Shown here: piece by piece, positions 2,237-30,808 of the stretch
Layout: the number at the start of each line of letters is the position of its first letter
Position numbering within the stretch: the first letter of the stretch is position 1
NCBI GenBank assembly: GCA_001885315.1
Contig: MLPZ01000002.1
Location: 75,365 to 139,364, forward strand
Reading direction: 5' to 3'
DNA from: Treponema sp. CETP13
Lineage (GTDB): Bacteria > Spirochaetota > Spirochaetia > Treponematales > Treponemataceae
DNA: 64,000 nt
The notes under the pieces: model-generated
What the model was told of the DNA's origin: nothing
Seen by the model: the letters and a program-made list of their open reading frames with translations, nothing else
Databases searched by the model: none
Position numbers and translations under genes: made by a program

Positions 2237-2242
2237 CAAAAG

Positions 2243-2271
2243 AAAGGATTCGGCAATACCGAATCCTTTTT
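2243..2271. terminator. Bidirectional intrinsic terminator between convergent genes
   Basis: Hairpin aaaggattcgg-caata-ccgaatccttt, followed by a T-run and preceded by an A-run. Confidence 0.7.
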
Positions 2272-2299
2272 AGTTTTAACTTACTATAAGAAAAGCTAT

Positions 2300-3676: not shown

Positions 3677-3787
3677 GAATGTTAGTATATCATGTTTATA
3701 AATGGCTTTAAATACCTTTGTTCCCGTTTACTAAAGTGTGTAAAAAAGATAAAATTGGACAATTTATATAAAAGAAAGCGAGGCACT

Positions 3788-4711: not shown

Positions 4712-5151
4712 TGTTAAATGTAGATACAATAAAAAATGGATTGGTAATTGATCATATTAGACCAGGATCTGGCTATCAGATTTTTACATGGCTTGGGTTA
4801 GATAAAGCTTCTTTTACTTGTGCACTTATTAGTAATGTAGAATCAAAAAAATATGGACGAAAAGACATTATAAAAATAGAGAATATAATAAATATTGATT
4901 ATTCAGTTCTTGGATTTATTGATCCGAACATAACGGTTAATACGGTTTGTGAAGGCGGAGTTACTCAAAAAATGAAGTTGTCACTTCCTAGTCGTGTAGA
5001 AAATGTAATTCATTGTAAAAATCCTCGTTGTATTACAAGCACAGAAAAGTATGTCCCTCAGATTTTTAAATTAGTGAATGCTAAACGTCGCGAATATAGG
5101 TGTGAATATTGTGATGAATTATATACTGCTGGAGTTGGTGACGTTTTTTAG
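4711..5151 (+). CDS. pyrI: Aspartate carbamoyltransferase regulatory subunit
   Basis: 146 aa. Zn-site cysteines CKNPRCIT...CEYCD. Its start overlaps the pyrB stop (TAATG). Confidence 0.85.
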   Translation: MLNVDTIKNGLVIDHIRPGSGYQIFTWLGLDKASFTCALISNVESKKYGRKDIIKIENIINIDYSVLGFIDPNITVNTVCEGGVTQKMKLSLPSRVENVIHCKNPRCITSTEKYVPQIFKLVNAKRREYRCEYCDELYTAGVGDVF

Positions 5152-5174
5152 ATTGATTAGAGGGAGATGAATAA

Positions 5175-6497: not shown

Positions 6498-6582
6498 CTA
6501 CGGCACAAACATCATCTTGTTGCAGTTGCTTCCTTCCGGATCTGGCTGAGTTCGCAAGCGATGCTTTGCATAGCACCTAGGC
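6487..6582 (-). ncRNA. ffs: Small (4.5S-type) signal recognition particle RNA
   Basis: The minus strand reads GCCUAGGUGC...CAGCCAGAUCCGGAAGGAAGCAACUGCAAC...GUGCCGUAGUUAACCUAGGC. This includes the conserved SRP domain IV core CCGGAAGGAAGCA. The termini (GCCUAGG/CCUAGGC) pair. The 3' end overlaps the pyrC stop on the opposite strand. Confidence 0.75.
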
Positions 6583-6586
6583 AATA

Positions 6587-6671
6587 CGGAGAGAACGGGA
6601 TTCGAACCCGTGGTACGTTACCGCACACAGCCTTTCCAAGACTGCACCATCGACCACTCGGACATCTCTCC
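6587..6671 (-). tRNA. tRNA-Ser (anticodon GGA)
   Basis: Folded by hand: acceptor GGAGAGA/TCTCTCC, anticodon stem CAGTC/GGCTG, loop TTGGAAA, long variable arm, T-loop GGTTCGAATCC. No encoded CCA. Confidence 0.85.
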
Positions 6672-6745
6672 AAAACCTACGAGTTTAAAATTAAACTCTA
6701 TATAATAAAAAAAAGCTCCGTCTCTTATTCTAAAAAAAAGAGCTA

Positions 6746-6830
6746 CGGAGAGAGGGGGATTCGAACCCCCGGCACCTTGCGGCGCAACGGTTTTCGGGAC
6801 CGCCCGATTCGACCGCTCTCGCATCTCTCC
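6746..6830 (-). tRNA. tRNA-Ser (anticodon CGA); anticodon loop reads CCCGAAA (C at position 33)
   Basis: Acceptor GGAGAGA, anticodon stem GCGGT/ACCGT, long variable arm, T-loop GGTTCGAATCC. Near-paralogue of tRNA-Ser(UGA) at 7142-7226. Confidence 0.8.
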
Positions 6831-6855
6831 AGGGGTTTATGATTCGAATAAAAAT

Positions 6856-6929
6856 CGAGAATAAGAGGAGTCGAACCTCCGACCTTCAGGTCCGCAACCT
6901 GACGCTCTATCCAGCTGAGCTACATTCTC
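6856..6929 (-). tRNA. tRNA-Arg (anticodon GCG)
   Basis: D-arm GCTCAGCTGGATAGAGC, anticodon stem TCAGG/CCTGA, loop TTGCGGA, T-arm GGAGGTTCGACTCCTCT. Confidence 0.8.
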
Positions 6930-6972
6930 AAAACTTACTTGTTTTACCGTCATTATTATTAATGAGTCAATG

Positions 6973-7060
6973 CGGAGCAAGGGGGATTCGAACCCCCGAT
7001 ACCCGGATAGGGTATAACTCCTTAGCAGGGAGCCACCTTCGGCCACTCGGTCATCGCTCC
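6973..7060 (-). tRNA. tRNA-Ser (anticodon GCU)
   Basis: Acceptor GGAGCGA, anticodon stem GCTCC/GGAGT, loop CTGCTAA, long variable arm, T-loop GGTTCGAATCC. Confidence 0.85.
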
Positions 7061-7141
7061 AAAAACGGTTTTTATTTGCTTTTACAAATAATAACAAGAA
7101 TTAAAACCTATCGGTTATCTTTTTATAAAAATAAAAAAATA

Positions 7142-7226
7142 CGGAGCAAGGGGGATTCGAACCCCCGGAACCTCGCGGCTCAACGGTTTTCAAGACCGCC
7201 TCATTCGACCACTCTGACATCGCTCC
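7142..7226 (-). tRNA. tRNA-Ser (anticodon UGA)
   Basis: Acceptor GGAGCGA, anticodon stem GCGGT/ACCGT, loop CTTGAAA, long variable arm, T-loop GGTTCGAATCC. Confidence 0.85.
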
Positions 7227-7384
7227 AGATAAGGTGAGATTATCTTATACTTTTTAGGCGATCCTTGTCAATGGCAATAAATAAAAAAAATAGCAAAAAA
7301 AAAGAAAATGAAAAATTTATAAATAAACTAGTTCTGAGAGTTTTTATGGTGTATAATTTATGTATTATTTTTTAGGAGAAATTG

Positions 7385-10300
7385 ATGCAAGAGATCTCAC
7401 ATTTATATGAAAATCCAGAAATCCAAAGTTTACATAGGTTACCAGCTCGATCAAATATAGTTCCATTTAATAGTGCAGAAAAAGCTACTAAATATAGTGC
7501 AGAAGGTCCTCTGTGCCATATATCAGAAAAGTATAAATTTGCTACTGAATCAGAAAGTGAATATGTAAAAAATCTTGATGGAGAATGGGATTTTCTTTTG
7601 TTCAAAAATCCACAACAAGCAGAAGAGGCAGACCTTTCTACCAGTGAATGGAAGAAAATATCAGTTCCAGGGACCTGGTCTCGATTAGGCTATGACAAAC
7701 CTCATTATACAAATGTACAAATGCCTCATGATATGGTTCCTCCGTATGCTCCAGATGAAAATACAACCGGTGTGTATCGATTAAATGTCATCATTCCAGA
7801 ACTGTGGAATAATCGGCGAGTAGTTCTCCATATTGGTTCAGCAGAAAGTTGTACTTTTGTTAAAGTAAATGGGCAATTTGTTGGTATGTCAAAAGATAGC
7901 AGGTTACCTTTTGAGTTCGATATAACAGATGCGCTTGATAAAGATTCAAAGACAGCTCAAATTATAATAACAGTTGTGCGATATAGCGATGCTTCTTATG
8001 TTGAGGATCAGGATCAATGGTGGCTGGGGGGAATCCATAGGAGTGTGTATTTATATTCCACTGAAGATTGTTATATTAGTGATCTACAAGCATTAACCTA
8101 TATAGAAGATTCGAAAGGTATTGTTCCTCTTGTTGTAACATTAGGTAATAAATCTTTGCGAAAAACAACTGAATTGCAGGATTTAAAACCTCGTATTTTA
8201 TGGAAAATACATACGCTACAAGGCACCCCATACAAAGGCGAAGTTGGGGATCTTGTTGCAGAAGGTGAATTGCAAGGTGATTACAATTATGCAAAAACTT
8301 CACAGCAGGTACGCGAGAAAATTGTAATAAAAAATCCTCAATTATGGAGCCATGAAAGTCCTTCTTTATATGTTTTGACGGTAAGCATGTATGATTTTGA
8401 GCGCCATGTTGAAAGTTCTGCATGTACGTTTGGGTTTAAAGATGTTCGTCTAGAAAATCGAGAAATGAGATTAAATGGTAAGGCAATCCTTATAAAAGGT
8501 GTGAATCGTCATGAACATAATGAATATACAGGAAAGACGCTAACTACAAATGAAATGCTAAAGGATATAACTTTACTAAAGCAATATAATTTTAACGCAG
8601 TTAGGACTTGTCATTATCCAGATGATGAGCGCTGGTATGAGCTTTGCGATCGCTTTGGCATTTTGTTAATGGACGAGGCAAATATCGAAAACCATGCGTT
8701 TTATGATCAAATTTCACGAAGTGAAGCATGGACAAATGCATATATACAAAGATTACAAAGAATGGTTTGTCGAGATAAAAATCATGCTTCTATTTTTTGT
8801 TGGAGTCTTGGAAATGAAAGCGGTGATGGTCCAAACCATTGTGCGATGAATGGATGGCTTCGACGATATGATACGACTCGTTTAGTACAATATGAGGGAG
8901 CTGTTCGAGGAGAATGGACTCAAGGTGATTTTACATTAGAAACATTGTCCCGAGGAAAAGGTCTTACAGATTTTATTAGTCCCATGTATCCATCTATAGA
9001 TTTAATTACTAAATATGCATCTACTTGCTCAGATTATAGGCCTATAATTATGTGTGAATATTCACATGCAATGGGAAATTCAAATGGATCTTTGGCAGAC
9101 TATTGGCATGCTATTGAACAAACTCACGGATTGCAAGGTGGCTTTATTTGGGATTGGATAGATCAAGGCTTTGCTACAACTATAACAGAGAAAGAAGCAA
9201 TACCGACATATCCTACTGGGTCAAAATATTGGAAGTATGGCGGAGATTTTGGCGATACACCAACTGATTATGATTTTTGTCTTAATGGGCTCTTATTTCC
9301 AGATCAAACGCCAAAGCCTGCTATGGAAGAATGTAAGAGGCTTTTTGCCCCAGTAAAATTAACTATGCTTCATGTAAAGCAAGGTTTATTTGAAGTTGAA
9401 AATTGCCAATATTTTTCTAGGCTTAATGTATTTAAGTTACGATGGCAATTGCTCTCAAATGGCAAACGAATTGCATCTGGCTCGACAGCAATTCCAAAGA
9501 TAGAAGCAGGTAAAAAAGGTGTTGTAAAAATTCCTTATACAGAAAAACTTGCTAAGTGGTATTTTGATTGCAACGCAAAATTGCAAAATCCTGGCGAATT
9601 GGTTATTCATGTAGATGTAGTATATAAAAAAGATACTGTATGTTGCAAAAAGGACTCTGTATGTACTTGGAGTGAATTTGTATTAGAATCGGGTATGCAA
9701 GATTCTTTTGCAGCCGCTTTTGCAGATCAATATGGAAAAGTAAAACTAAAACCTACGGATATGCCTTGTGAAACTGTAAATTTAATAGTCGCTGGTTCTA
9801 AGCCTCAAGTATTTAGAGCTCCAACAGAAAATGAGTTTATAAAGGCATTAAAAGGGCAAGAGCATAATCCTCTCTTCGAATTTTATTTTAAAGAAAAACC
9901 TGCTCTTAAATGGATAGAATCAGATTTATCGCAAATTACCGAAGAGAACATGAAATTTAATGCTGATAAAGGACAACTTGTTTTGCAATCAGATTTATAT
10001 ACAGGTCCAGCTGCAAAAGAACATAAAAAAATAGGAAGTTTTGTCCGACGTGTTTCAAGCTTTGTTGCTCCGGGTAAAAAAGCGGGAACTGTTTGGAATA
10101 TCGAATTTAGTTTGAATGAAGAGGTTTCTGAATATCCACGAGTTGGTATTACATCTCAAATTAGTTCTATATATGATACTGTTCAGTGGTATGGGCGAGG
10201 GCCTCATGAATGTTATAATGACCGTTGCGAAGGAGCTGCGTTAGGATTGTATACTAGACATGTAAATGATTTGGATGTCCCGTATATTGTTCCTCAGCAT

Positions 10301-17689: not shown

Positions 17690-17835
17690 ACCGACACTTT
17701 AGCAGAATTAAAGTATCTTTTCAATTAGTAAAGAAAACGAGAAAAAAGGGAAAATAGGGGGGGAGGTGGGGGTGCAAGTTTGTCTTGCCGAGCTTTGCTA
17801 CTTTGTGAAACTTGTCGTGGAATGAGTTTCATTCT

Positions 17836-17978
17836 GGCAAATCCCCTCTTCGAGGGTCGCGCTATTACAACCTCCGCTCTCGCTCCGAAAGCCTTGTGGC
17901 TAAAAAGCCACTGCGGGTTTTTGCTACTGCAAGTTTCCATATCGCTATTTGTGCGGGCGGTAACGGGGGGGAGGGGAG
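17836..17978 (+). repeat. Unclassified ~140-nt intergenic repeat, copy A (G-run terminated)
   Basis: ggcaaatcccctcttcgagggtcgcgctattacaacctccg...tttttgcta.tgcaagtttccatatcgctatttgt.cg.gcggtaacggggggg recurs at 23093-23230 in the same orientation. About 90% identity by eye. Confidence 0.8.
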
Positions 17979-18191: not shown

Positions 18192-19946
18192 ATGAATATA
18201 AAACCAAAAGATAAAAACATTAAGGCATTACTTATTTCAGGTAGTCAATTTTCTATTCCAAGATTCCAAAGAGATTATTCTTGGGATAAAAAAAATTATC
18301 AAGAATTTATTGATGATATGCTTGATTGTTTACGTATATGTGATGGTAAATTGGAAACAAAAAGTTATTTTTTAGGAACAATGCTTTTTATTGGTGATTA
18401 TTCAGATTCAGTAAATAAAGACAAATCTATTTATGTTGTGGATGGACAACAACGAATTACGACCATTACTATTTTGTTTTCTGCTTTGTCAGATAGATTT
18501 AGAAGTATAGGTGAGGAAAAACTGAGTGAGCAAGTTTTTCGATACATTATGACACAAGATGATGATGGAGAAGATATAAGGGTATTAGAAAGTAAGACAC
18601 ACTATCCATACTTTTCGTTTTACATTCAAGATAGAGAAAAACTTGATGCACAAGACCCAACTACAGAAGAAGAAGAATGCATTAGAGATTCTTTTAAATA
18701 TTTATATGATAGGTTAGATGATAAAAAATTAAAACTTTATTTAAAGAAAAAACTGGGAAGTGATGAAGTTGATCAGTTAAAATATGTAGATATACTTAAA
18801 ACTTTAAGAGATCAGATATTGGGCACTACTTTTATTTCTATTTCAACGCCTGATAAAAAAAACGCTAACATGATCTTTGAAATACTCAATGCAAAAGGAA
18901 AACGATTGTCTCATGTTGATTTAATAAAAAATAAAATCTTTGAAGTATTAGAAAAGACAGAACCTGCTGATTATGCAGAAGAAAAATGGGCTGATATTAA
19001 GAAAATTTTAGTTTCTCGAGATGAAACGGTTGGGTTAGCAACTTATTACAGGCATTTTTGGATATCAACATATACAAAATCTTCAGCTACTAAACTTTAT
19101 GATAATTTTCAAAAGGCAATAAAACCTAAAACAAAGGAAAGATATAAGCAGTTCCTTTGTGAAATCGAAGAAAATGCAGAAAACTATATTAAAATACTTA
19201 ATCCGAGACGAGAAGACTATGAAAATAGAAAAGAATACTTTTGGTTAGTACAAAGTTTAAATGTTTTGATGAATTATTTTAATATTGTTCAGGTTAGAAT
19301 TGCTTTACTAGCATTATTTAATATCAAAAAAAAGGAGTATATTTCTACTAAAAAATTTAAAGAAACAATACTGTTTTTAGAAAATTTTCATTTTGCATAT
19401 AATGCAGTTGTTTCGGGGAGGACAAATAAATTTGAAGGCATATATGCAAAATTTGCTATTCAAGTAAGAAGATGTAAAGACAAATCTGAATCACAAAAAA
19501 CAATCGATCAATTGCTGATTCAACCATTAAATACATTATTTCCAGGTTTTGATCAATTTTCGAAAGGATTTGTTTCCTTGAATTACACTAGAAAAACTAA
19601 ACTCAATAATGTAAAAACTAAATATGCAATACAAAAATTAAACTCTTTTTATGATAATAAGGATGTTTTTTCTGATAATGGAAGCATTGAACATATTGTC
19701 CCAGAATCAACAGGTGAGAACTCATTCAATATAGGCAACTTAATAATATTAGAAGAAACGCTAAATGAAGAAGCTGGTGATCAAAGCTATCTTCAAAAGA
19801 AGAAAGTGTATTTAAAATCTTCTTATTCTTGGATTAATAAATTCGTGGAAGCCAATGAAGTATGGACCAAGGCTAATATCGAACAAAGAGCAATTGATCT
19901 TTCTAAGATTTACTATCGTGATATTTTAGGTAAAACAATAAGTTAA
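18192..19946 (+). CDS. GmrSD-like DUF262/DUF1524 protein (putative type IV modification-dependent restriction enzyme)
   Basis: N-terminal ParB/DUF262 motifs (..IPRFQRDYSW.., ..VVDGQQRITT..). C-terminal His-Me/HNH-like DUF1524 region (..GSIEHIVPES..NIGNLIILEETLNEEAGD..). SD aaagggag upstream. Confidence 0.7.
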   Translation: MNIKPKDKNIKALLISGSQFSIPRFQRDYSWDKKNYQEFIDDMLDCLRICDGKLETKSYFLGTMLFIGDYSDSVNKDKSIYVVDGQQRITTITILFSALSDRFRSIGEEKLSEQVFRYIMTQDDDGEDIRVLESKTHYPYFSFYIQDREKLDAQDPTTEEEECIRDSFKYLYDRLDDKKLKLYLKKKLGSDEVDQLKYVDILKTLRDQILGTTFISISTPDKKNANMIFEILNAKGKRLSHVDLIKNKIFEVLEKTEPADYAEEKWADIKKILVSRDETVGLATYYRHFWISTYTKSSATKLYDNFQKAIKPKTKERYKQFLCEIEENAENYIKILNPRREDYENRKEYFWLVQSLNVLMNYFNIVQVRIALLALFNIKKKEYISTKKFKETILFLENFHFAYNAVVSGRTNKFEGIYAKFAIQVRRCKDKSESQKTIDQLLIQPLNTLFPGFDQFSKGFVSLNYTRKTKLNNVKTKYAIQKLNSFYDNKDVFSDNGSIEHIVPESTGENSFNIGNLIILEETLNEEAGDQSYLQKKKVYLKSSYSWINKFVEANEVWTKANIEQRAIDLSKIYYRDILGKTIS

Positions 19947-20206: not shown

Positions 20207-20288
20207 AAATTATTAATTAGCTATGGTAAAATACAGCTATTGGTAGTACATTGTATATATCTTGTATATATATTTGAGAGGTATAAAG

Positions 20289-21458
20289 ATGTTGTTGTCA
20301 TACAGTGCTAAAAACTTTTATTGTTTTAAAGAAGGCCTTGAAGTTTCGTTTAAGTTAGGTAAATCATGTCCTCAAGAAATATCAAATAATAAAGATTTTA
20401 CAAATGTTCTCTGCGTAAAAGGTGCAAATGGGGCAGGTAAATCTAATGCCTTAAAAGTTCTTGATTTTCTTAGATTGTTTTGTCGTGATTCTTTTTTGTT
20501 AAAGCCAGATGCACCAATAGGCTATAAAACTTTTTTTAATAATACTAATCCATCAGAGTTTTGTGTGGAATTTTCAGTCGATGGCATTGTATATCAATAT
20601 GATTTATCGATAACAAAAAATGAAATACTCAGTGAAAAGTTGTCAAAGACAGTTAAGCGCTCAAAAACGCTATTTACACGAACTAAAAATAAAGTAGAGA
20701 CAATTACAGAGTTTGATGAACTTAAAAAAATTAAATTGAGATCTAATGCTTCAATTATTAGTACGGCGCATCAGTATGAAATAAAAGAGCTTGCTGTTGT
20801 ATATTCTTTTTTTGAAAAAATAATACCGTTAAATACTACGCTTCCAAAATTGATATATAATACAAATGATATTATTAGAAATTCACAACCTTTTGCTGAG
20901 TTGCATTCAATTAATCAAAATTATTATGATTATCCCGAAGCGTTTGCTTTTACAAAAGATATCTTAAAAAAATTTGATTTAGGAATTAAAGATATAAAGA
21001 TTAAAAAAGTTCAAATAGATAAAGACAATATTGAATATAATCCATATTTTGTTCATGAAAATAATAAAAAAGAGTATGAGCTTCCTTTTGAATTAGAATC
21101 TTCTGGGACAAGAAGTTTATATAATCAACTATTTTTTTATTATGGGGTACTTGAAGTGGGGGGTGTTTTTGTTTTAGACGAGTTTGATGTTAATTTGCAT
21201 CCAGATATATTGCCGTTATTAATAGACTTATTTACAAATAAAGAAACAAATCCTCATAATGCACAATTATTATTTACAACACATAATTCTGAAATCCTTA
21301 ATACATTGGGTAAATACCGCACGGTATTAGTCAACAAAGAAGCAAATGAAAGTTATTTATATCGTCTAGATGAACTTCCCGGCGATATAATTAGAAATGA
21401 TCGTCCTCTAGAACCGGTCTATCGGAGTGGTAAAATTGGAGGTGTCCCTAAAGTATGA
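20289..21458 (+). CDS. AAA15/AAA21-type (ABC/SMC-like, COG1106-like) ATPase, defence-associated
   Basis: Walker A GANGAGKSN, signature-like ESSGTRSLY, Walker B VFVLDEFDVNLHPD, TTHNSE, and C-terminal ..YRSGKIGGVPKV. Start taken at ATG 20289 after gagagg. Confidence 0.7.
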   Translation: MLLSYSAKNFYCFKEGLEVSFKLGKSCPQEISNNKDFTNVLCVKGANGAGKSNALKVLDFLRLFCRDSFLLKPDAPIGYKTFFNNTNPSEFCVEFSVDGIVYQYDLSITKNEILSEKLSKTVKRSKTLFTRTKNKVETITEFDELKKIKLRSNASIISTAHQYEIKELAVVYSFFEKIIPLNTTLPKLIYNTNDIIRNSQPFAELHSINQNYYDYPEAFAFTKDILKKFDLGIKDIKIKKVQIDKDNIEYNPYFVHENNKKEYELPFELESSGTRSLYNQLFFYYGVLEVGGVFVLDEFDVNLHPDILPLLIDLFTNKETNPHNAQLLFTTHNSEILNTLGKYRTVLVNKEANESYLYRLDELPGDIIRNDRPLEPVYRSGKIGGVPKV

Positions 21459-21967
21459 ACAAGTTTTCTAATAAGAGAAAAGAAAGTTTTTTAGATTCAA
21501 TACCGACTGAAAGTCTCGATAACAAGACAAACGATATTGTTTGCAGGTGTAAATTTAATTTTTCATATTTTGATAATTCTCAAGGAGTTGGTCAAGATTT
21601 TAAAGATTGGACACAGGAAGAATTGGCAAAACTTTTAGATAAGCTGAAAAATTATTGCAAATTTTCATTAGAACACTGGAAAAATGAAAAAATAGGTTCT
21701 GGAAAACATAGAAATGGTATTTTAGTTGAATATGGCTCTTTTCCCGTAAAAACTGATTTTAAGTTTCCTTTACATATTCCGCATCAAGTTATTTGGGGGC
21801 GATTTAGACTAGAGCAAGCAACACGTTTAGTAGGATTTACAATTCCCAAACAATATGAAGATTTGTTTTGTAATAATAAAAAATTAAAGTATCGCTTTGA
21901 TTGCAATACCTTTTATGTTGTATTTCTTGATAAAAATCATAGGTTCTGGAAATCAAGTAACAAGTAA
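21455..21967 (+). CDS. Hypothetical 170-aa protein, translationally coupled to the ATPase (candidate effector)
   Basis: ATGA overlap with the upstream stop. No family recognised. The C-terminal pattern VIWGRFRLEQATRLVGF...NTFYVVFLDKNHRFW is reminiscent of RelE/ParE-superfamily strand motifs (inference). Confidence 0.5.
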   Translation: MNKFSNKRKESFLDSIPTESLDNKTNDIVCRCKFNFSYFDNSQGVGQDFKDWTQEELAKLLDKLKNYCKFSLEHWKNEKIGSGKHRNGILVEYGSFPVKTDFKFPLHIPHQVIWGRFRLEQATRLVGFTIPKQYEDLFCNNKKLKYRFDCNTFYVVFLDKNHRFWKSSNK

Positions 21968-22020
21968 AACTCTATGTAAGGCCTTTTAACCCCCTCGAGT
22001 TCGAAGGGGTTAAAAAACGT

Positions 22021-22341
22021 ATTCAATCTAAGCTACGTTAATCATAAATAGGAGCTTCAGTATCAATGCACTGTAACATTTGCTCAGCTACTTTTTTCCC
22101 TGACCGGATCATTCCGCCAAATACAGGTCCCATTCTGTAAGCTCCGGCTACGCCATTTGCAGCCATTCCACTAACAAAAAGACGAGGATAAATTTCGCAT
22201 GTATTTTCAGCCGTGGCAAGTTCGGCTTTTTTACATTTTAAAGATCTCTCGCCCATAACCTTACCAGTCTTTGTATTAAGTGTTATTTCGTTTTTTCGGG
22301 TTAACACATTTACAATTTCAGATGGATGGCCGGTAGCATCT
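22021..22341. repeat. 321-bp direct repeat, copy 1 (3' end of intact thi4 plus 17 nt downstream)
   Basis: Aligns without indels to 42894-43214, with about 19 mismatches by manual alignment. Confidence 0.9.
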
Positions 22342-22832
22342 AAGACACAACGACTTATAGCCATAAGAGGATCTACATGCATATGCTCTTTATGTACAGG
22401 AGCCCAATTTAAAACAACTCCACCAATACTTTCGTCTTTTGCAAAAATAATATCTTCGATACTTATCATATTAAGAAGTGTTACCCCAGCTTCTACAGCC
22501 TTAGAAATAAGAGTAGATGCAAGGTAAACCGAATCGATAGTATAAAAATTGTCTTTTACCTCAGGAAGTTCTACTCCTATTTCTGATAAAATAGTGGCCG
22601 CTTCTTCTTGAACCATAACGTCATTAAAAAACATACCACCACCCCAAATTCCACCACCAGGGGCAAGTTCGCGCTCAAACATTACCACTTTTTTTCCAGC
22701 TTTAGCTAAAAAATATCCAGCAACAAGCCCAGATGGTCCTGAACCTACAATAATTGCATCTGAGTCCAACGCACTCTTTAATTTTGTGTGATAAGAATCT
22801 AAAATTCCTTTTGAAACATTGTATTCTAACAT
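22038..22832 (-). CDS. thi4: Thiazole synthase, Thi4 family
   Basis: Dinucleotide-binding IVGSGPSGLVAGYFLA, then ..ERELAPGGGIWGGGMFFN.. and ..LDATGHPSEIV... Preceded by a TPP riboswitch. Confidence 0.85.
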   Translation of the reverse strand: MLEYNVSKGILDSYHTKLKSALDSDAIIVGSGPSGLVAGYFLAKAGKKVVMFERELAPGGGIWGGGMFFNDVMVQEEAATILSEIGVELPEVKDNFYTIDSVYLASTLISKAVEAGVTLLNMISIEDIIFAKDESIGGVVLNWAPVHKEHMHVDPLMAISRCVLDATGHPSEIVNVLTRKNEITLNTKTGKVMGERSLKCKKAELATAENTCEIYPRLFVSGMAANGVAGAYRMGPVFGGMIRSGKKVAEQMLQCIDTEAPIYD

Positions 22833-22939
22833 ATGTTCCTCCTAAGTTTTATGAACAGGAGAACCACCAATTTAGAGATTTGTCTTTTAGAATATAGAGT
22901 TTGAGGTATTGTTACGATTTTTTGTTTACATAAATACAT

Positions 22940-23020
22940 GAAAACCGCCTCCCTGCGCTGGCATTATCCAGATCAGGTTCAAAGGGTATATTCTCAGCTC
23001 GTTAGGAGCACCCCTGTTCA
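22940..23020 (-). promoter_or_regulatory. TPP (THI-box) riboswitch upstream of thi4
   Basis: The minus strand reads acaggggtgctcctaacgagctgagaatataccctttgaacctgatctggataatgccagcgcagggaggcgg. This contains the conserved CUGAGA, ACCUGAUCUGGAUAAUGCCAGCG core. Confidence 0.85.
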
Positions 23021-23092
23021 ATTATTTATAAATAGTAATGATATTAAAAAACATTTACAAGTGTTTTTAAGTTTTTTTTCGCTTGCATCTTT

Positions 23093-23230
23093 GGCAAATC
23101 CCCTCTTCGAGGGTCGCGCTATTACAACCTCCGCTTCCGCTTCGAAAGCCTCGTGCCTAAAGTCACTCGGGTTTTTGCTAACGCAAGTTTCCATATCGCT
23201 ATTTGTACGAGCGGTAACGGGGGGAGGGGG
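23093..23230 (+). repeat. Unclassified ~140-nt intergenic repeat, copy B
   Basis: Same orientation and about 90% identity to 17836-17978. Ends in G6AG5 followed by A8. Confidence 0.8.
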
Positions 23231-23286
23231 AAAAAAAATTTGATTATTTCAAAATTAAGTAGTAACTTAACAGGTGAGGAGTATTA

Positions 23287-24192
23287 ATGGAAAAAGAGTT
23301 TAACCAATTTATAGAGAAGATTACTTTAACAACGAAACAAAAAGATGAAGCTAAAACAAAGTATACAGGGGTATGTAAAAAAGTTCATGATTATTATTAT
23401 GATTGTAATTATGATGGATCAACTAAATTTTTATTTGGATCGTACAAATTAAAAACAAATATTAGACCGATTACAAAAGATCAAGATGTTGATGTTTTGA
23501 TTAAATTACCACAAGAAACTTTTGAAAAATTTAATAATTATCAAAGTAATGGACAATCAGCGTTATTAGAAGAAGTCAAAAGCATATTAAAAGAAAAATA
23601 TACGACAACTGATAAAATAAAAAGTTGGGGAAAAGTTATACTGCTTCAATTTGAAGATAGTACCCATAATATTGAATTATTACCAGCATTTGAACAGGAT
23701 GATAATAGTTTTAAAATCCCAAATACCGAAAATGGTGGAAGTTGGGAAGTATTTAACCCTAGAGCTCAAATTGATGCTTTTAATGAAAGTAATAAAAATA
23801 GTGATGGGTTGACCCGTAAGATATGTAAAATGGTTAAAAAATGGCGAAACTTTACTACTTCTGTTTCTATAAAGTCATGTTCTATTCAAGATTGGGCAAT
23901 CGATTTCCTTGCTAGTAATAAAGTAGATCAGTTAGAAATAGAAGAAATATTACAAAAATATTTCGAATTCATAAGATCAAAATGTTCTTCAGATAATAAA
24001 TCCTATGTTGAAACTGTATTAAAACGTATTGAAAAAGCAATTAATTATATTGATGATGGAGAGGAAAACGAAGCTTCTCAAGAATTTAGAAAAATTTTTG
24101 GTAATGAATTCCCTTTAGTAGAAGATAGTTCAAAAACAAATAGTTTTGATAATAATATATTTTCTACTCCTCGACCATGGCTAGAAAATTAA
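23287..24192 (+). CDS. SMODS / minimal CD-NTase-like nucleotidyltransferase
   Basis: Pol-beta NTase motif FGSYKLKTNIRPITKDQDVDVLIKL (GS...DxD) plus a downstream acidic strand NIELLPAF. 301 aa. First gene of a tightly packed three-gene cassette. Confidence 0.65.
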   Translation: MEKEFNQFIEKITLTTKQKDEAKTKYTGVCKKVHDYYYDCNYDGSTKFLFGSYKLKTNIRPITKDQDVDVLIKLPQETFEKFNNYQSNGQSALLEEVKSILKEKYTTTDKIKSWGKVILLQFEDSTHNIELLPAFEQDDNSFKIPNTENGGSWEVFNPRAQIDAFNESNKNSDGLTRKICKMVKKWRNFTTSVSIKSCSIQDWAIDFLASNKVDQLEIEEILQKYFEFIRSKCSSDNKSYVETVLKRIEKAINYIDDGEENEASQEFRKIFGNEFPLVEDSSKTNSFDNNIFSTPRPWLEN

Positions 24193-24767
24193 TGATTTTA
24201 AGACCTTCTAAGATAGACTTAGATTGGTTAAATAATAATCAACCTAAGTTATGTTTTAATAATAAAAATATAATTGAAGGAATATATAAATTAAATAGTA
24301 GTTATAAGGGTGTCGCTTTAAAAGGTAATTACAAAATCAAGATAGATCTTTTAGTTGATAATATAGATTTAATTCCTACTGTTTATTTATATCCCGAAAA
24401 TCTACATAGGATTCTTAATAAATCTGATCTAAAAATAAGTGATTTACATATAAATTCTGATTTTTCTCTCTGCTTGTGTATTCCTGAACTTGCGAAAGAC
24501 TATTTGCCTCATGGATATAATTTAAAAGAATTTATAATCAATTTAGTAAATCCGTTTTTCTATTGGATACGGTCTTATTGTTTAAATAAAAAAAAACCAT
24601 GGAATGATTATTCTCATGGTTTCCAAGGATACAAAGAAGCTTTTGGCGTTGATGTTTTTGAAACGAAGAAATCAGTTAATAATCAAGAGTTATATAATTG
24701 TATTAAAAAAAAATTTGGTAGTGAATATCTAAGTAAACAAGCTTTTCGAAAAATAATAAGAGGTTAA
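24177..24767 (+). CDS. Prokaryotic E2 (UBC-fold)-like protein
   Basis: ..IPTVYLYPENL...DLHINSDFSLCLCIPEL.. resembles the E2 HPN-x(n)-C-L catalytic motif. The start overlaps the NTase gene; alternative ATG at 24192 (TAATG). Confidence 0.5.
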   Translation: MARKLMILRPSKIDLDWLNNNQPKLCFNNKNIIEGIYKLNSSYKGVALKGNYKIKIDLLVDNIDLIPTVYLYPENLHRILNKSDLKISDLHINSDFSLCLCIPELAKDYLPHGYNLKEFIINLVNPFFYWIRSYCLNKKKPWNDYSHGFQGYKEAFGVDVFETKKSVNNQELYNCIKKKFGSEYLSKQAFRKIIRG

Positions 24768-24768
24768 T

Positions 24769-25350
24769 ATGATTGATTTTACGAATTTATCAGTTTTAAG
24801 ACAAAATTTTGCAAATGTAGTATATACCATGAAGATTCATGAAATATGTAAAGAAAAAGCTGCTATAGGTAAGGTTATATATGCTATTGTAAATATTATT
24901 TTAATTGGTTTAACATTTGTAATTATTACGTTTGGTAATATTTTTTTTAATATCGGGGTCTGTAATATTTTTTCTTCTTTGTTTTCATTAAGTGCGTTAA
25001 TTTTGTTTATATGTACTTTAGTATTCAATCCTAATAATAAGTATAAACAACATGAAACGACAGCTAATAAACTATTACTAATAAGAGAAAAATATATAAA
25101 TCTTATGGCGGATATTGTTACTGAAAATATATCTTCAGATTTAATCAAGCAAAAAAGTGATGGTTTAGTAAATGAAGTAGAAAAAATCTATGCAGAAGCT
25201 CCATATCGATCACGACGATGTTATAAAGAAGCACAAAGACGATTAAGAGGTAAAAATGTCGAAGGAGAGGATTTTACTACCTCAGATAAAGAAATAGATC
25301 GTTTTTTGCCGAGTGAATTAAAATATTCTACATTAAAAGATAATAAATAA
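24769..25350 (+). CDS. SLATT-like two-TM membrane effector
   Basis: N-terminal helix (..VVYTMKIHEICKEKAA..), then two TM helices (VIYAIVNIILIGLTFVIITF, IFSSLFSLSALILFICTLVF) and a helical C-terminal region. Starts 1 nt after the upstream stop. Confidence 0.55.
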   Translation: MIDFTNLSVLRQNFANVVYTMKIHEICKEKAAIGKVIYAIVNIILIGLTFVIITFGNIFFNIGVCNIFSSLFSLSALILFICTLVFNPNNKYKQHETTANKLLLIREKYINLMADIVTENISSDLIKQKSDGLVNEVEKIYAEAPYRSRRCYKEAQRRLRGKNVEGEDFTTSDKEIDRFLPSELKYSTLKDNK

Positions 25351-25456: not shown

Positions 25457-28429
25457 ATGACAAAAGAACGACAAATTGAAGATAATTTTATTAAAAAGTT
25501 ACAAGAATTAAAATATGTGTATAGAGATGATATTTGTGATTTAGATTCTTTAAACCAAAACTTTCGTGAGAAATTTAATGCATTAAATAAAGTTAACTTT
25601 ACAGATTCTGAATTTGCACGGTTGTTAGATGATATTGTTAGTCCTGATGTCTTTAAATCTGCAAAAAAACTTCGAGAGCGCAACTCTTTTGAGCGAGAAG
25701 ATGGCACGCCTTTAAATTATACATTAGTAAACACAAAAGACTGGTGTAAAAATAGCTTTGAGTGTGTAAATCAGTTGCGAATAAATACTGAAAACAGTAA
25801 TCAAAGATATGATGTTATTCTTTTAATTAATGGTATACCGGTTGTTCAAGTAGAATTAAAAGCTTTAGCTATTAGCCCTCGTAGAGCAATGCAGCAAATA
25901 GTTGAATATAAAAATGAGCGGGGAAACGGTTATGGGCGAACACTTTTGTGCTTTATGCAAATATTTGTTGTAAGTAATCGCAGTAACACCTGGTATTTTG
26001 CAAATAATAACACTAAATATTTTAGTTTTGATGCGGATGAGCATTTTTTACCATTATATGAATTTGCAGATAAAGATAATAAAAAAATAACGCATCTTGA
26101 TGATTTTTCTGATAACTTTTTGCAAAAGTGCACATTAGGTGAAATGATAAGTCGTTATATGGTTCTTGTTGAGTGTGAGCAAAAGCTAATGATGATGCGT
26201 CCATATCAAATTTATGCTGTAAAAGCTATTGTTGATTGCATTCATCAAAATCGTGGCAACGGATATATTTGGCATACAACCGGAAGTGGTAAAACACTGA
26301 CTTCATTTAAAGCTTCAACATTGCTTAAAGATAATGACGATATTAAAAAATGTCTTTTTGTAGTTGATCGAAAAGATCTTGATAGACAAACACGACAAGA
26401 ATTTAACAAATTTCAAAAAGGCTGTGTAGAAGAAAATACAAATACCGAAACACTTGTAGAAAGACTTTTATCTACTAATTATGCAGATAAAGTTATTGTA
26501 ACAACAATTCAAAAATTAGGGATTGCTTTAGATGGCACAAATAAAAAAAATTATAAAGAACGCTTAGAACCACTACGAAAGAGCAGAGTTGTTTTTATTT
26601 TTGATGAATGTCATCGCTCTCAATTTGGAAAAAATAATCTTGCAATAAAAGAGTTTTTTCCCAATTCGCAGTTGTTTGGATTTACAGGAACGCCAATTTT
26701 TGAAGAAAATGCGAGTCAAGTACAAATAGAGGGACAGGAAAAGTCTTATAGAACTACAGAGGATATTTTCCAAAAATTGCTCCATTCATATACAATAACA
26801 AATGCTATAGAAGACAGAAATGTTCTTCGGTTTCATATTGAATATTATAAACCAGAAGGCAAATTGATACCAAAACCGGGAGAGTCATTAAGTCAAGAAG
26901 CCATTGTAAATGCTATTTTAGAAAAACATTATAAAGCTACCGCAAATCGAGAGTTTAATGCGTTGTTTGCAACTTCGTCTATAAATCAAGCAATCGAATA
27001 TTATAAATTATTTAAACTAATTCAAACTAAGAAATTAGAAGAGAATCCTAAATATGTGCTTTTAAACATTGCCTGCGTATTTTCTCCGCCTGCTGATGGC
27101 AACAAAGATATTTTGCAGATACAAGAAGATCTACTGCAAGAAAAGTTAGATAATCAAGAAAAACCAGAAGAAAAAAAACAGGCTCTAAAAGAAATTATCA
27201 GTGATTATAATTTTCAATATGGGACTAATCATGATATTGCTAATTTTGACCTTTATTATCAGGATATTCAAAAACGCATAAAAGATCAGCAATATTCTAA
27301 TTCTGATTATTCTGATAATAAAAAAATAGACATTACAATTGTTGTTGATATGCTTTTAACAGGGTTTGATTCAAAATATCTAAACACAGTCTATGTTGAT
27401 AAGACTCTTAAATACCATGGTTTAATTCAAGCTTTTTCACGGACAAATCGTGTATTAAATGATACAAAACCCTATGGAAATATACTTGATTTTCGCGGTC
27501 AACAAGACGCAGTTAATGAAGCTATAGCTCTGTTTTCTGGTGAAGAAAATAATAGAGAAAAAGAAATTTGGTTAGTTGATCCTGCTCCAGTCATAATTAC
27601 AAAATTAGATGAAGCTGTTTCAAGTTTAAATACATTTATGACATCTCAAGGTCTAAAATGTGCTCCAGAAGAAGTTGCAAATCTTAAAGGAGATGAATCT
27701 CGGGGGCAATTTGTCAATTTATTTAAAGAAGTTCAACGATTAAAAACACAGATAGATCAATATACAGATTTAACAGAAGATGAAAAAGAGCAAGTTGAAC
27801 AAGTTTTACCGCAAGATGATTTGTATAGTTTTAGGGGTGTGTATTTAGAGACTGCTGCACGACTTAAATTAAAACAAGATACCTCATGGAAAGAAGAAAC
27901 GACGGATATAATTCAGAATCTTGATTTTGAATTTGTTCTTTTTGCTTCAGCCATGATTGATTACGATTATATTATGCAATTAATATCTGAGTATACTCAA
28001 AATACACCAGAAAAACAAAATGTATCACGTGAAGAATTAATAGGTTTAATAGCTTCCGATTCAAAATTTATAGAAGAAAAAGAGAATATTTCAGAATATA
28101 TTGCAACTTTAAAAACAGGCAAGGGGTTGTCCGAAAACGAAATTCGCAATGGTTATGAGCTTTTTAAAGCCAAAAAATATGATGCTGAAATTGCAACCAT
28201 CGCACAAAAGCATAAACTGCAACAAACTGATTTAAAAGCGTTTATTACTGATGTGGTAACGAGATTAATATTTGATGGAGATGCCTTAACCGATTTATTT
28301 GAACCATTAGAATTAGGTTGGAAAGTCCGCTCAAAAGCTGAAGGTGCATTAGTAAAAGATTTATCGCCTTTATTGCACAAAATGGCACATGATAGAGAAA
28401 TCTCAGGATTAAAAGCTTATGAAGAATAG
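25457..28429 (+). CDS. hsdR: Type I restriction enzyme R subunit
   Basis: N-terminal PD-(D/E)xK nuclease (YDVILLINGIPVVQVELK), helicase motif I HTTGSGKT, motif II FDECHRSQ, and ..LLTGFDS.. and ..QAFSRTNR.. motifs. 990 aa. Confidence 0.9.
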   Translation: MTKERQIEDNFIKKLQELKYVYRDDICDLDSLNQNFREKFNALNKVNFTDSEFARLLDDIVSPDVFKSAKKLRERNSFEREDGTPLNYTLVNTKDWCKNSFECVNQLRINTENSNQRYDVILLINGIPVVQVELKALAISPRRAMQQIVEYKNERGNGYGRTLLCFMQIFVVSNRSNTWYFANNNTKYFSFDADEHFLPLYEFADKDNKKITHLDDFSDNFLQKCTLGEMISRYMVLVECEQKLMMMRPYQIYAVKAIVDCIHQNRGNGYIWHTTGSGKTLTSFKASTLLKDNDDIKKCLFVVDRKDLDRQTRQEFNKFQKGCVEENTNTETLVERLLSTNYADKVIVTTIQKLGIALDGTNKKNYKERLEPLRKSRVVFIFDECHRSQFGKNNLAIKEFFPNSQLFGFTGTPIFEENASQVQIEGQEKSYRTTEDIFQKLLHSYTITNAIEDRNVLRFHIEYYKPEGKLIPKPGESLSQEAIVNAILEKHYKATANREFNALFATSSINQAIEYYKLFKLIQTKKLEENPKYVLLNIACVFSPPADGNKDILQIQEDLLQEKLDNQEKPEEKKQALKEIISDYNFQYGTNHDIANFDLYYQDIQKRIKDQQYSNSDYSDNKKIDITIVVDMLLTGFDSKYLNTVYVDKTLKYHGLIQAFSRTNRVLNDTKPYGNILDFRGQQDAVNEAIALFSGEENNREKEIWLVDPAPVIITKLDEAVSSLNTFMTSQGLKCAPEEVANLKGDESRGQFVNLFKEVQRLKTQIDQYTDLTEDEKEQVEQVLPQDDLYSFRGVYLETAARLKLKQDTSWKEETTDIIQNLDFEFVLFASAMIDYDYIMQLISEYTQNTPEKQNVSREELIGLIASDSKFIEEKENISEYIATLKTGKGLSENEIRNGYELFKAKKYDAEIATIAQKHKLQQTDLKAFITDVVTRLIFDGDALTDLFEPLELGWKVRSKAEGALVKDLSPLLHKMAHDREISGLKAYEE

Positions 28430-29699
28430 TAAAACTAAAACAGCAGTCCCAAAATTACGATTCCCCGAGTTTCAAGATACAGAGGCTTGGAAATTTAAAG
28501 AATTATTAAAAATGAGTAATCATTTAGTTGATAAAGTCGGTGATGCAATATACCCCACTGTAAGTATTGCTGCTGGATTTGGCTTTGTAACTCAAAAAGA
28601 AAGATTTGGACGGGATATTTCAGGAAAACAATATAAAAATTATATTTTATTAAAAAAAGGTGATTTTGCTTATAATAAAGGTAATTCAAAGAAATACCCT
28701 CAAGGTTGTATTTATGAATTAAATAAATTTGATGTTGTAGCAGCCCCCAATGCTTTTATATGTTTTCGCTTAAAAAAATATTATATAGCAAGTTTTTATA
28801 AACAATATTTCCAAGCTAATTATCATGCTGAACAATTAAAAAAATATATTACTAGTGGAGCAAGAAGTGATGGTTTATTAAATATCAATCAAAATAATTT
28901 TTTTTCAATAATTTTACCTTCTCCAAAAAAAGAAGAGCAACAAAAAATAGCTGATTGCCTTTCTTCTATTGATGAACTTATTACTTTACATTCAAAAAAG
29001 CTTGATACGTTAAAAGACTATAAAAAAGGACTCTTACAACAACTTTTCCCTGTAGAGGGCGAAAGTATTCCGAAGTTAAGATTTCCTGAATTTGAGAATG
29101 ATGGAGAATGGAATCAATTTGCTCTTGGCGAGATTACATCGGTTTCTGCAGGAGGGACCCCTCTTAGTTTTAAAAGTGAATATTGGGATGGTAATATTCC
29201 ATGGATGAATTCAGGAGATTTAAATAAAAAGAAAATTTTTAGTGTTTTAAAAAAAATAACAGAGTTGGGATTAAAAAATTCTAGTACAAAATATATTCCT
29301 ACTAAATGTATATTAGTTGGTTTAGCGGGGCAGGGTAAAACAAGAGGCACTGTTGCTATCAATTATATAGAATTATGTACTAATCAATCAGTTGGAGCTA
29401 TTTATCCAAATACACAAATTTTTGTTAGTGAGTTTTTGTATTATAAAATGGATTCTATGTATAAGGTTTTAAGAAATATATCAAAAGTTGAAGGTGGCAG
29501 AGGGGGTTTAAATCTGCAAATGATTAAGGCTCTCCAAATATATTTACCTAAAATAAAAGAACAACAAAAGGTAGCTGATTGTTTAACTTCCTTGGATGAG
29601 CTGATAACTGCGCAATCGAAAAAAATTGAAACACTAAAGCAACACAAAAAAGGTTTATTGCAACAGTTGTTTCCGTCTCAACAGGAAGTAATTAGATGA
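28419..29699 (+). CDS. hsdS: Type I restriction enzyme specificity subunit (two TRDs)
   Basis: Duplicated conserved regions: PKLRFPEF at the start of each half, and QQK[IV]ADCL[ST]S[IL]DELIT..SKK..TLK..KKGLLQQLFP at the centre and C-terminus. Overlaps the hsdR end by 11 nt. Confidence 0.9.
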   Translation: MKNSKTKTAVPKLRFPEFQDTEAWKFKELLKMSNHLVDKVGDAIYPTVSIAAGFGFVTQKERFGRDISGKQYKNYILLKKGDFAYNKGNSKKYPQGCIYELNKFDVVAAPNAFICFRLKKYYIASFYKQYFQANYHAEQLKKYITSGARSDGLLNINQNNFFSIILPSPKKEEQQKIADCLSSIDELITLHSKKLDTLKDYKKGLLQQLFPVEGESIPKLRFPEFENDGEWNQFALGEITSVSAGGTPLSFKSEYWDGNIPWMNSGDLNKKKIFSVLKKITELGLKNSSTKYIPTKCILVGLAGQGKTRGTVAINYIELCTNQSVGAIYPNTQIFVSEFLYYKMDSMYKVLRNISKVEGGRGGLNLQMIKALQIYLPKIKEQQKVADCLTSLDELITAQSKKIETLKQHKKGLLQQLFPSQQEVIR

Positions 29700-30808
29700 G
29701 TAAAGCACTTTCTTATAAATCACTAGAAAAAGTTGTCACAAAATTACGAGGTGATCTTAATCCTGAGGATCCTAAATCTAAAAAATTTGTGTTACTTTAT
29801 GCTTATAATGGAACTGGTAAAACACGACTTTCTATGACTTTTAAAGATAGAGGCAGAGAGCATGACAATAGAGATACTTTATATTTTAATGCATATACAG
29901 AAGATCTTTTTTATTGGGATAATGACCTTGAAAATGATACAACACGAGTACTTAAAATAAATTCTAATTCAAAATTTTTTAATGGCTTTAAAGAACATGC
30001 ATTAGAAGAGAAAATTTATAAATATTTTAATCGCTATAGTGATTTACAATTTAAAATAGATTATAAATTGTGGTATATTACTTTTTCAAAAGGGGAAGCT
30101 ACGGATATAAAAATTTCACGTGGTGAAGAAAATATTTTTATTTGGTGTATCTTTCTTACTATCTGTGAACTTGTTATTGATGGGGATGAATTGTATGCAT
30201 GGGTAAAATATATTTATATAGATGATCCTATTTCTTCACTTGATGATAATAATGCAATATCGGTTGCTTCTGATTTATCAAATTTACTAAAAAATGAAAA
30301 TAATAAAGTAAAAACAGTTATTTCATCACATCATGCTCTCTTTTTTAACGTAATGTGTAATGAATTACGTAAGCAAAACTCTAAACAATATTTCCTTTAT
30401 CATGATAAAGATTTAGAAAAATATAAACTTTCTACGACCGGAGATACACCTTTTTTCTATCATTTGGCGATGTTGGCAGAATTAAAAAAAGCAACAGACG
30501 CAGGTCGTTTATATACATATCATTTTAATATACTAAGAAATATTTTTGATAAAACATCTTCTTTTTTTGGATATAAAAACTTTTCGGCATGTATTGAAGA
30601 TATGGATGATGAAGAATTATATGCGCGTGCTTTAAATGTGTTGAGCCATGGTAATTATTCAATCTATGAACCAAAAGAAATGGGAATGGATTCAAAAGAT
30701 TTGTTTAGAAATATATTATATGCATTTCTTAATAAATATGATTTTAATTTAACAGGTTTTATACATGAAGAAGATAAGGAAACAATAAAAAATGGCAATG
30801 ACAGATAA
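29696..30808 (+). CDS. PrrC-like anticodon nuclease candidate (AAA_13-type NTPase + C-terminal nuclease region) embedded in the R-M operon
   Basis: Walker A YNGTGKTRLS, ABC-signature-like ISRGEENIF, Walker B YIYIDDPISSLD. The C-terminus has LRNIFD...(about 32 aa)...LSHGN, i.e. an Arg/acidic(+4)/His arrangement like the PrrC ACNase triad. ATGA overlap with hsdS, and a 17-nt overlap with hsdM. Confidence 0.6.
   Translation: MSKALSYKSLEKVVTKLRGDLNPEDPKSKKFVLLYAYNGTGKTRLSMTFKDRGREHDNRDTLYFNAYTEDLFYWDNDLENDTTRVLKINSNSKFFNGFKEHALEEKIYKYFNRYSDLQFKIDYKLWYITFSKGEATDIKISRGEENIFIWCIFLTICELVIDGDELYAWVKYIYIDDPISSLDDNNAISVASDLSNLLKNENNKVKTVISSHHALFFNVMCNELRKQNSKQYFLYHDKDLEKYKLSTTGDTPFFYHLAMLAELKKATDAGRLYTYHFNILRNIFDKTSSFFGYKNFSACIEDMDDEELYARALNVLSHGNYSIYEPKEMGMDSKDLFRNILYAFLNKYDFNLTGFIHEEDKETIKNGNDR

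Follow-up and report, generated by a model that had tools for sequence, protein, structure and literature searches.

What kind of system is formed by the two overlapping genes at positions 20289 to 21967 of a 64,000-nucleotide stretch from Treponema sp. CETP13 (contig MLPZ01000002.1; the whole stretch is called the window below)? The upstream gene encodes an ABC-type ATPase, and the downstream gene encodes a 170-aa protein with no match in Pfam, PADLOC or NCBIfam, in agreement with a preliminary description of the locus that had found no family for it. That description had proposed a candidate new defence system that could be placed in no named one. This proposal does not hold, since the architecture and properties of the pair match those of the published AarT(D3):AAA(D29) pair (Ernits et al., PNAS 2023; PMC10440598). 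The window pair is very probably a new member, from Treponema, of the AarT–AAA ATPase family, a pair type known since 2023. We put a probability of about 0.72 on the cassette being a toxin–antitoxin or candidate abortive-infection (Abi) module of this family, in which an ATPase neutralises a toxin that blocks translation.

A conserved pair of ATPase and small-protein genes

Both open reading frames (ORFs) begin with ATG on the plus strand, and they share a 4-nt ATGA in which the start of the small gene overlaps the stop of the ATPase gene (Table 1), implying translational coupling. A longer ATPase frame starting from TTG at 20262 also appears in the ORF listing; the ATG at 20289 is favoured, as all tblastn alignments to 70 ATPase homologues begin at its residue 1. 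At 100% identity, the small protein corresponds to OJF77338.1, from the metagenome-assembled genome (MAG) of Treponema sp. CETP13.

Homologues of the small protein are numerous: a word-indexed search found 560, and an exhaustive profile search (E up to 1e-3) recovered 356 cluster representatives at 50% identity. A linkage survey with one genome per species returned 80 loci containing the small gene, and tblastn placed a full-length homologue of the window ATPase directly upstream in 79 of them, the sole exception (L010) being cut by a contig end. The ATGA junction noted in the preliminary description recurs as a 4-nt overlap of the same type in 57/79 homologous junctions; 71 overlap in some way, and the largest gap is 31 nt. 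The 80 loci span at least eight phyla, including Spirochaetota, Campylobacterota, Pseudomonadota, Desulfobacterota, Bacteroidota, Cyanobacteria and Gracilibacteria. The pairing of the ATPase with the small gene is far beyond chance, and these data support a dedicated, translationally coupled two-gene module with conserved linkage, as the earlier coupling claim had supposed.

The ATPase matched AAA_21 in Pfam (3.6e-41), AbiLi in PADLOC release v2.0.0 (PDLC02335; 2.8e-69, 231.7 bits) and PHROG 5836 (3.8e-79). It also matched the PADLOC AriA model (1.6e-38, model span 3-304/304), which is not specific, having the same length and span as Pfam AAA_21, and the PtuA models only at 1e-5 to 1e-6, over its C-terminal part. 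The Pfam AAA_15 threshold was not reached, although some homologues match AAA_15 weakly. No sequence relative of the ATPase was found in the PDB. All four strings first quoted for it (GANGAGKSN, ESSGTRSLY, VFVLDEFDVNLHPD and TTHNSE) are present. Walker A (G45, N47, G50, K51), the signature (S271, G273), Walker B (D297, E298), the D-loop (D300), the H-loop (H332) and a family-specific C-terminal block (YRLDE 358-362, R369, R372, Y378, GG 384-385, P387) are conserved in at least 95% of 72 full-length homologues, indicating that the ATPase is catalytically intact and under selection. The AbiLi match and the conserved ABC catalytic motifs support the assignment, already made in the preliminary description, to the AbiLi/AriA/PtuA kind of ATPase known from AbiL, PARIS and Septu.

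The window pair falls in a chromosomal clade (389-aa ATPase, toxin of ~165-170 aa) that shares only about 25-30% identity with a divergent clade from Acinetobacter and enterobacterial plasmids (ATPase of 432-459 aa, toxin of 145 aa). Apart from replication genes, this module is all that is carried by the 4.7-kb ColE1-type plasmids found in E. coli, Salmonella, Klebsiella and Enterobacter; Acinetobacter plasmids of 5.6 kb also contain it. Among 5,426 complete E. coli genomes, 14 contain the ColE1-type plasmid-borne module, every copy on a plasmid, and 15 contain the chromosomal clade. The copy of E. coli GTEN_24 belongs to a P4-like island that also encodes a P4-type primase, an integrase, transposases and SymE. 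Its occurrence on small plasmids, on a conjugative plasmid and in islands identifies the module as a self-contained mobile unit.

Partners, sequence family and predicted fold of the small protein

The genes found upstream of its relatives indicate what the small protein does. Viral contigs yielded 59 loci with the same domain, in which the gene directly upstream encodes a Panacea (DUF4065) domain in 37 and an AAA_21 ATPase in 18; the remaining four are interrupted by the end of the contig, and there is no solitary copy. In Bacteroides phage BI-TP1, gp24 aligned with the small-protein family at an hhalign probability of 99.5%, and gp23, which lies upstream of gp24 and overlaps it, is a SocA/Panacea domain (PF13274, 3.5e-20). 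Since its homologues are alternatively partnered by this antitoxin domain, the small protein is most readily understood as a toxin domain for which Panacea and the ATPase are interchangeable upstream guardians.

A converse survey started from the window ATPase and covered 80 viral loci where it has relatives. The toxin follows all nine of the ATPases nearest to it (39-47% full-length identity, E 1e-110 to 6e-81; hmmsearch E 1e-53 to 1e-61 for the toxin) and is absent behind the remaining, more distant relatives, which reach 33% full-length identity at best. The partners of these distant ATPases, where representatives were inspected, are RloB-like (Pfam RloB up to 3e-42) or RiboL-PSP HEPN proteins. 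The window ATPase thus belongs to the AbiLi/RloA radiation, which explains its match to the PADLOC AbiLi model, and forms a distinct clade there, with this toxin and not a TOPRIM nuclease in the effector slot. As the nearest ATPases outside the clade are partnered by RloB/TOPRIM or HEPN proteins, the pair can be described as an effector-swapped relative of AbiL. Phage and prophage contigs (L156-L226) contain many pairs of ATPase with RloB and of ATPase with RiboL-PSP-HEPN, the ATPases being 24-33% identical to that of the window; one partner type of such viral ATPases, of ~177 aa (e.g. at L165), has no Pfam match.

In a set of 100 divergent small proteins, W114 and G127 never vary, and R124, D159, H162 and a hydrophobic/proline core hardly do. 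Family members share the C-terminal motif FYVVFLDxxHxF[YW], the N-terminal strand KFNFSYF and long loops that are likewise conserved, and both strings quoted earlier from the window protein, HIPHQVIWGRFRLEQATRLVGF and NTFYVVFLDKNHRFW, are found in it. The conserved Arg/Asp/His near the C-terminus presumably recalls YafQ, HigB and YoeB. A Pfam scan of 100 family members at E up to 5 gave no RloB, TOPRIM, DUF4435, HNH or RelE/ParE signal, so that the partner's lack of HNH, TOPRIM and RloB motifs, remarked on at the outset for the window protein, extends to its relatives. PDB profile searches with two family alignments (A1 and A4) returned no match and no RelE/ParE link, and the window protein matched PHROGs only weakly, to a family of unknown function.

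AlphaFold modelled the window protein with a predicted local distance difference test score (pLDDT) of 86.5 and a predicted template-modelling score (pTM) of 0.79. In the model, helices pack against an antiparallel sheet, with strands at residues 33-35, 90-94, 113-118, 124-129 and 152-159 and helices at 54-67 and 72-77. A second model, of a 146-aa Acinetobacter member, was less confident (pLDDT 67.6) and kept the same order of elements. For both models, the top-ranked small-protein matches in the PDB by Foldseek are RelE-superfamily toxins, none of them significant. For the window model these are 8yxv_E, YoeB 7v5y_E, YoeB/ParE 6n90, YafQ 4mmj, RelK 3oei and HigB 5ixl, with a template-modelling score (TM, normalised to the target) of 0.51 and an E-value of 3.5 for 6n90_B. 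For the Acinetobacter model they are HigB 6af4_C (E 0.2, probability 0.63, TM 0.44), HigB2 5jaa_D and 6af3_A. Foldseek against BFVD gave no meaningful match. On these models, a RelE-like fold is plausible. The initial guess of a RelE/ParE (BECR) fold thus agrees with the order of elements and with the highest-ranked matches, without reaching significance in any of them. As neither a significant structural match nor a profile connection was obtained, RNase chemistry of the small protein is a matter of inference.

Relation to AarT, proposed mechanism and alternatives

Ernits et al. built the NetFlax network by hopping from Panacea via conserved two-gene neighbourhoods, and its hub antitoxin node D29 is an AAA ATPase with partners that include RloB (D44), TOPRIM, HNH and HEPN (PMC10440598). 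The AarT(D3):AAA(D29) pair of Acinetobacter guerrae was validated experimentally, AarT denoting an AAA-associated RNase-like toxin. This protein is toxic in E. coli and is neutralised by its AAA ATPase; with it, 35S-methionine incorporation goes down and 3H-uridine incorporation goes up (PMC10440598). It has no HHpred matches and a predicted mRNA-interferase-like fold, and in structure clustering it groups with mRNA interferases (PMC10440598), with which our RelE-like reading of the window protein is consistent. The authors speculated that the pair is an abortive-infection system (PMC10440598). From the hopping scheme, the D3 node would itself be linked to Panacea.

AarT(D3) is very probably the family to which the window protein belongs. 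The published primers (Dataset S2) encode an A. guerrae AarT that starts with MAAKRQS and ends in PKKHT before the stop codon, and an ATPase that starts with MLVNFS and ends in IKGTD before the stop codon. A C-terminal ...KKHT is found in several branches of the small-protein family (P0148, P0201, P0215, P0239, P0251, P0261, P0265, L119, L125, L137 and L144), and in the six-frame translation of 226 loci this tail occurs only at the ends of family members; P0261 in addition starts with MSVAKRQN. The ATPase on the 5.6-kb A. baumannii plasmids starts with MLVNFS, identical to the A. guerrae start, and its partner aligned with the small-protein family at an hhalign probability of 98.6%. Unlike the KKHT-tailed branches, the window protein ends in ...HRFWKSSNK.

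In Panacea- and ATPase-partnered branches alike, the tail has the form ...[SP]xKKHT and comes right after LDxxHxF[YW], L084 being also among such loci; this basic tail may contribute to RNA or ribosome binding. The Acinetobacter plasmid homologue as query returned 8 clusters, none from A. guerrae. The locus of P0215 (tail ...PKKHT) was considered as the A. guerrae locus and rejected on account of the differing termini of its neighbouring ATPase, and P0215 as query returned only itself.

In the mechanism that we propose, the ATPase would be translated first and the toxin then by coupled translation. The ATPase would bind and neutralise the toxin, probably in a large oligomer like that of AriA with AriB in PARIS, until a trigger, for instance a phage protein or the element's loss, acted on the ATPase; the freed toxin would then arrest translation. 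The toxin would probably be a RelE/HigB-like RNase, with R124, D159 and H162, next to W114, as its likely active site. Toxicity, neutralisation and the block of translation are carried over to the window pair from the one published member, that of A. guerrae, and direct ATPase–toxin binding and sequestration followed by release are likewise presumed by analogy. RNase chemistry, the kind of trigger and a part in phage defence are conjectural for the window pair. The earlier picture of an ATPase sensor with an RNase effector in abortive infection has gained in one part, the toxin status of the partner now being indicated by Panacea partnering; its defence part can only be inferred, and the published coliphage screen was negative.

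Several observations weigh against the reading as an AarT-type, ATPase-neutralised module. No Foldseek match is significant for either model (best E 0.2, TM at most 0.51), and no profile search of Pfam or the PDB ties the small-protein family to RelE/ParE or to anything else. The link from the family to AarT (WP_152878172.1/WP_152878174.1) is indirect, through primer-encoded termini and shared properties. The AlphaFold interface of AarT with its ATPase is unconvincing (pDockQ 0.24-0.35), and the AarT pair gave no protection in the sole reported screen, made with BASEL coliphages in E. coli as a heterologous host (PMC10440598). Finally, when 148 genes flanking the pair in 37 loci were scored by defence models, only about a tenth matched. 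The last two points are also what one would expect if the module served chiefly for addiction (post-segregational killing), keeping plasmids, prophages and islands stable, with the ATPase simply as its antitoxin, a possibility to which we give some credence, at well below even odds. Its place as sole accessory cargo of the ColE1-type plasmids, its presence on the Acinetobacter plasmids and its location in E. coli chromosomes within an integrase/primase island fit such a role, as does the fact that most neighbours in other genomes are not defence genes. A 389-aa ATPase with fully conserved catalytic motifs, however, is a costly antitoxin for mere binding, and the sister-clade ATPases belong to AbiL/RloAB-type and HEPN-linked systems. 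Moreover, AbiL and PARIS, which have related ATPases, are proven Abi systems, and the window pair is embedded among four defence systems (GmrSD, a cyclic-oligonucleotide-based anti-phage signalling system (CBASS), a type I restriction-modification (R-M) system and PrrC). Addiction and defence are not mutually exclusive, and addiction is compatible with the same molecular mechanism.

The chemistry of the toxin and the identity of the system leave room for other views. A superficial RelE likeness would mean that the small protein is a toxin of new fold or chemistry, such as a tRNA/rRNA-modifying enzyme or a ribosome-binding inhibitor. The failure of every structural or profile search to give a significant match to any known family, the size of about twice that of RelE, the KFNFSYF strand and long loops, and the metabolic labelling, which shows only that translation is hit (PMC10440598), are in its favour. 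We nevertheless hold this to be unlikely, given that two independent models have a RelE-like order of elements, that the Arg/Asp/His set close to the C-terminus may recall that of YafQ, HigB and YoeB, that RelE-superfamily toxins rank first among small proteins and that the authors' structure clustering puts AarT with mRNA interferases (PMC10440598). The bolder proposal that AarT is a new class of translation-targeting enzyme with a W114/R124/D159/H162 site, and the ATPase the true infection sensor of a distinct, unnamed abortive-infection system, seems to us more improbable still. Genuine membership in AbiL, PARIS or Septu, the TOPRIM/RloB or HNH partner having diverged strongly, would accord with the scores of the ATPase on the AbiLi and AriA models given above, and yet it is barely credible: signals of RloB, TOPRIM, DUF4435 and HNH are nil among the 100 family members, the predicted antiparallel sheet with helices is not a TOPRIM fold, the RloB-linked ATPases form separate, more distant clades with clear RloB partners, and the AriA model, with the length and span of Pfam AAA_21, is not specific.

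Genomic setting and comparison with known systems

The preliminary description had placed the pair in a dense defence island between GmrSD and a SMODS cassette. Both neighbours are present (Table 1), the latter within a compact CBASS operon of overlapping genes at 23287-25350; as the housekeeping gene thi4 and its thiamine pyrophosphate (TPP) riboswitch intervene between the pair and CBASS, the island is not continuous, and we rejected the picture of an uninterrupted one. The dense setting in the window is real and not typical of the family. A general association with defence islands was rejected in view of the low share of defence-model matches among the flanking genes, which is also the outcome of the suggested check for enrichment beside known defence genes. 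The neighbours that do match are MADS components, DpdF, PD-Lambda-2, PsyrT, DRT and other AAA_21 ATPases. Integrases and MqsA antitoxins are found near the pair as well, and most others look like housekeeping genes.

The intergenic region 5' of the ATPase gene is 343 nt long and AT-rich. A perfect palindrome in it has no second copy in the window (0 matches would be expected by chance) and may serve as a -35 element, as an operator for a host factor, or as both. A consensus promoter scan, uninformative in such an AT-rich region, called no promoter there, and a recognisable DNA-binding domain was found in neither the ATPase nor the small protein. The stable hairpin downstream of the toxin gene is possibly a terminator; the terminator scan made no call at it, and a U-tract is absent.

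Two further features of the surroundings were noted. PrrC, embedded with the type I R-M genes, is a second ATPase-linked tRNA nuclease of the island. A GC-rich direct repeat of ~145 nt (~92% identical; predicted RNA fold z = -2.8) has only two copies in the window, at 17835-17977 and 23092-23231, each just upstream of a defence cassette (GmrSD, starting at 18192, and the CBASS CD-NTase, starting at 23287). The copies bracket a 5.26-kb segment with GmrSD, the ATPase–toxin pair and thi4, and the repeat could represent a regulatory element common to both cassettes, a small RNA or the scar of a recombination event.

Table 1. Coordinates of the ATPase–toxin pair, its signals and its neighbours in the window, and of related modules on plasmids
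Feature	Position	Strand	Basis or remark
Palindrome TTGACA-AATA-TGTCAA	20191..20206	+	Read from sequence; in intergenic region 5' of ATPase gene
Shine-Dalgarno-like GAGAGG	20276..20281	+	Read from sequence; 7 nt 5' of ATPase ATG
ABC-type (AAA_21) ATPase, 389 aa; antitoxin/presumed sensor position	20289..21458	+	Pfam, PADLOC and PHROG matches
ATGA start/stop overlap	21455..21458	+	Read from sequence
AarT-family toxin (assigned), 170 aa	21455..21967	+	Homologues, conservation, AlphaFold model, Panacea-partnered relatives, literature match
Stable hairpin between toxin gene and convergent thi4	21984..22015	.	Minimum free energy -17 kcal/mol, z = -3.1
GmrSD, upstream of pair	18192-19946		Pfam/PADLOC
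Thi4 thiazole synthase gene, convergent with toxin gene	22038-22832	-	Pfam Thi4 2.3e-72
TPP riboswitch of thi4	22933-23025	-	
CBASS SMODS CD-NTase	23287-24192		Pfam/PADLOC
CBASS E2-like protein	24177-24767		Pfam/PADLOC
CBASS SLATT_4 two-transmembrane effector	24769-25350		Pfam/PADLOC
Type I R-M hsdR	25457-28429		
Type I R-M hsdS	28419-29699		
PrrC anticodon-nuclease homologue	29696-30808		PADLOC PrrC 1.8e-138
Plasmid-clade module (L086)	E. coli p602A1-4K (CP100022.1), 1017-2757		
Plasmid-clade module (L081)	A. baumannii p1_005133, 1962-3771		Rep-type small plasmid
Module between integrase genes (L083)	Shewanella baltica pSBP2_mcr4, 3758-7971		Conjugative mcr-4 plasmid; beside retron Ec67-type reverse transcriptase/endonuclease

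With the family and its basic toxin–antitoxin behaviour published in 2023, the pair will be no surprise to a specialist. The module is widespread in bacteria, candidate phyla, phages and small plasmids, where it is still annotated as "AAA family ATPase" and "hypothetical protein". Its composition suggests that an ATPase scaffold of the AbiL/PARIS type can control a non-TOPRIM, predicted RelE-like toxin, and the same toxin can be held by a Panacea antitoxin instead, which provides a clear-cut natural case of both effectors and antitoxins being swapped. The plasmid clade is a natural system for comparing addiction with defence, and the native E. coli copies on 4.7-kb plasmids and in chromosomal islands make the trigger, the RNA target and phage defence directly testable.

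Compared with the established ATPase-based systems, the pair shares a lineage and not a partner. With PADLOC, the check first suggested for this locus, the ATPase matched models, the partner matched none, and no system with both genes was obtained; AriB had no match at the pair, nor had PtuB or HNH (Pfam, PADLOC). Although the ATPase lineage is common to them, membership in AbiL, PARIS or Septu was rejected for want of the defining partner domain (RloB/TOPRIM-OLD, AriB and the PtuB HNH, respectively), and the pair is therefore not the Septu or AbiL variant that the preliminary description had considered as an alternative; it probably shares their logic. AbiL (AbiLi/AbiLii of Lactococcus) and RloAB have ATPases of one radiation with that of the window, two-gene and often overlapping operons on mobile elements and a presumed abortive-infection logic; they differ in their RloB/TOPRIM-OLD nuclease effector, and none of the viral RloB-linked ATPases is found with AarT. 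The window pair lacks the AriB/DUF4435 domain of PARIS, and its similarity to AriA stays at the generic AAA_21 level, yet PARIS is the best-understood mechanistic model for the architecture of ATPase plus toxin, in which the ABC ATPase AriA, in the double role of antitoxin and sensor, controls a nuclease toxin that targets translation, the TOPRIM tRNase AriB.

On the toxin side, the BECR toxins RelE, ParE, HigB, YoeB and YafQ are the top-ranked structural neighbours, with the same order of elements, and a basic/His cluster is conserved near the C-terminus of the window toxin. The scores of the window family against them are not significant in sequence or structure, the window toxin is about twice the length of RelE, and it is paired with an ATPase in place of a small DNA-binding antitoxin. 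In PanA–PanT systems, the window toxin domain serves as the PanT-type toxin, as in BI-TP1 and the 37 viral contigs; there the antitoxin slot is filled by Panacea instead of the ATPase, and the toxins, at ~145 aa, are shorter, the loop of residues 130-150 being missing. Closest of all is AarT:AAA. The published experiments concern the A. guerrae pair only, whereas the window pair was found in a Treponema MAG and belongs to the chromosomal clade, but the two agree in gene order (ATPase first, small toxin second), in the AAA_21 type of the ATPase, in a toxin with no detectable domain and a predicted mRNA-interferase-like fold, and in a toxin family that is also partnered by Panacea.

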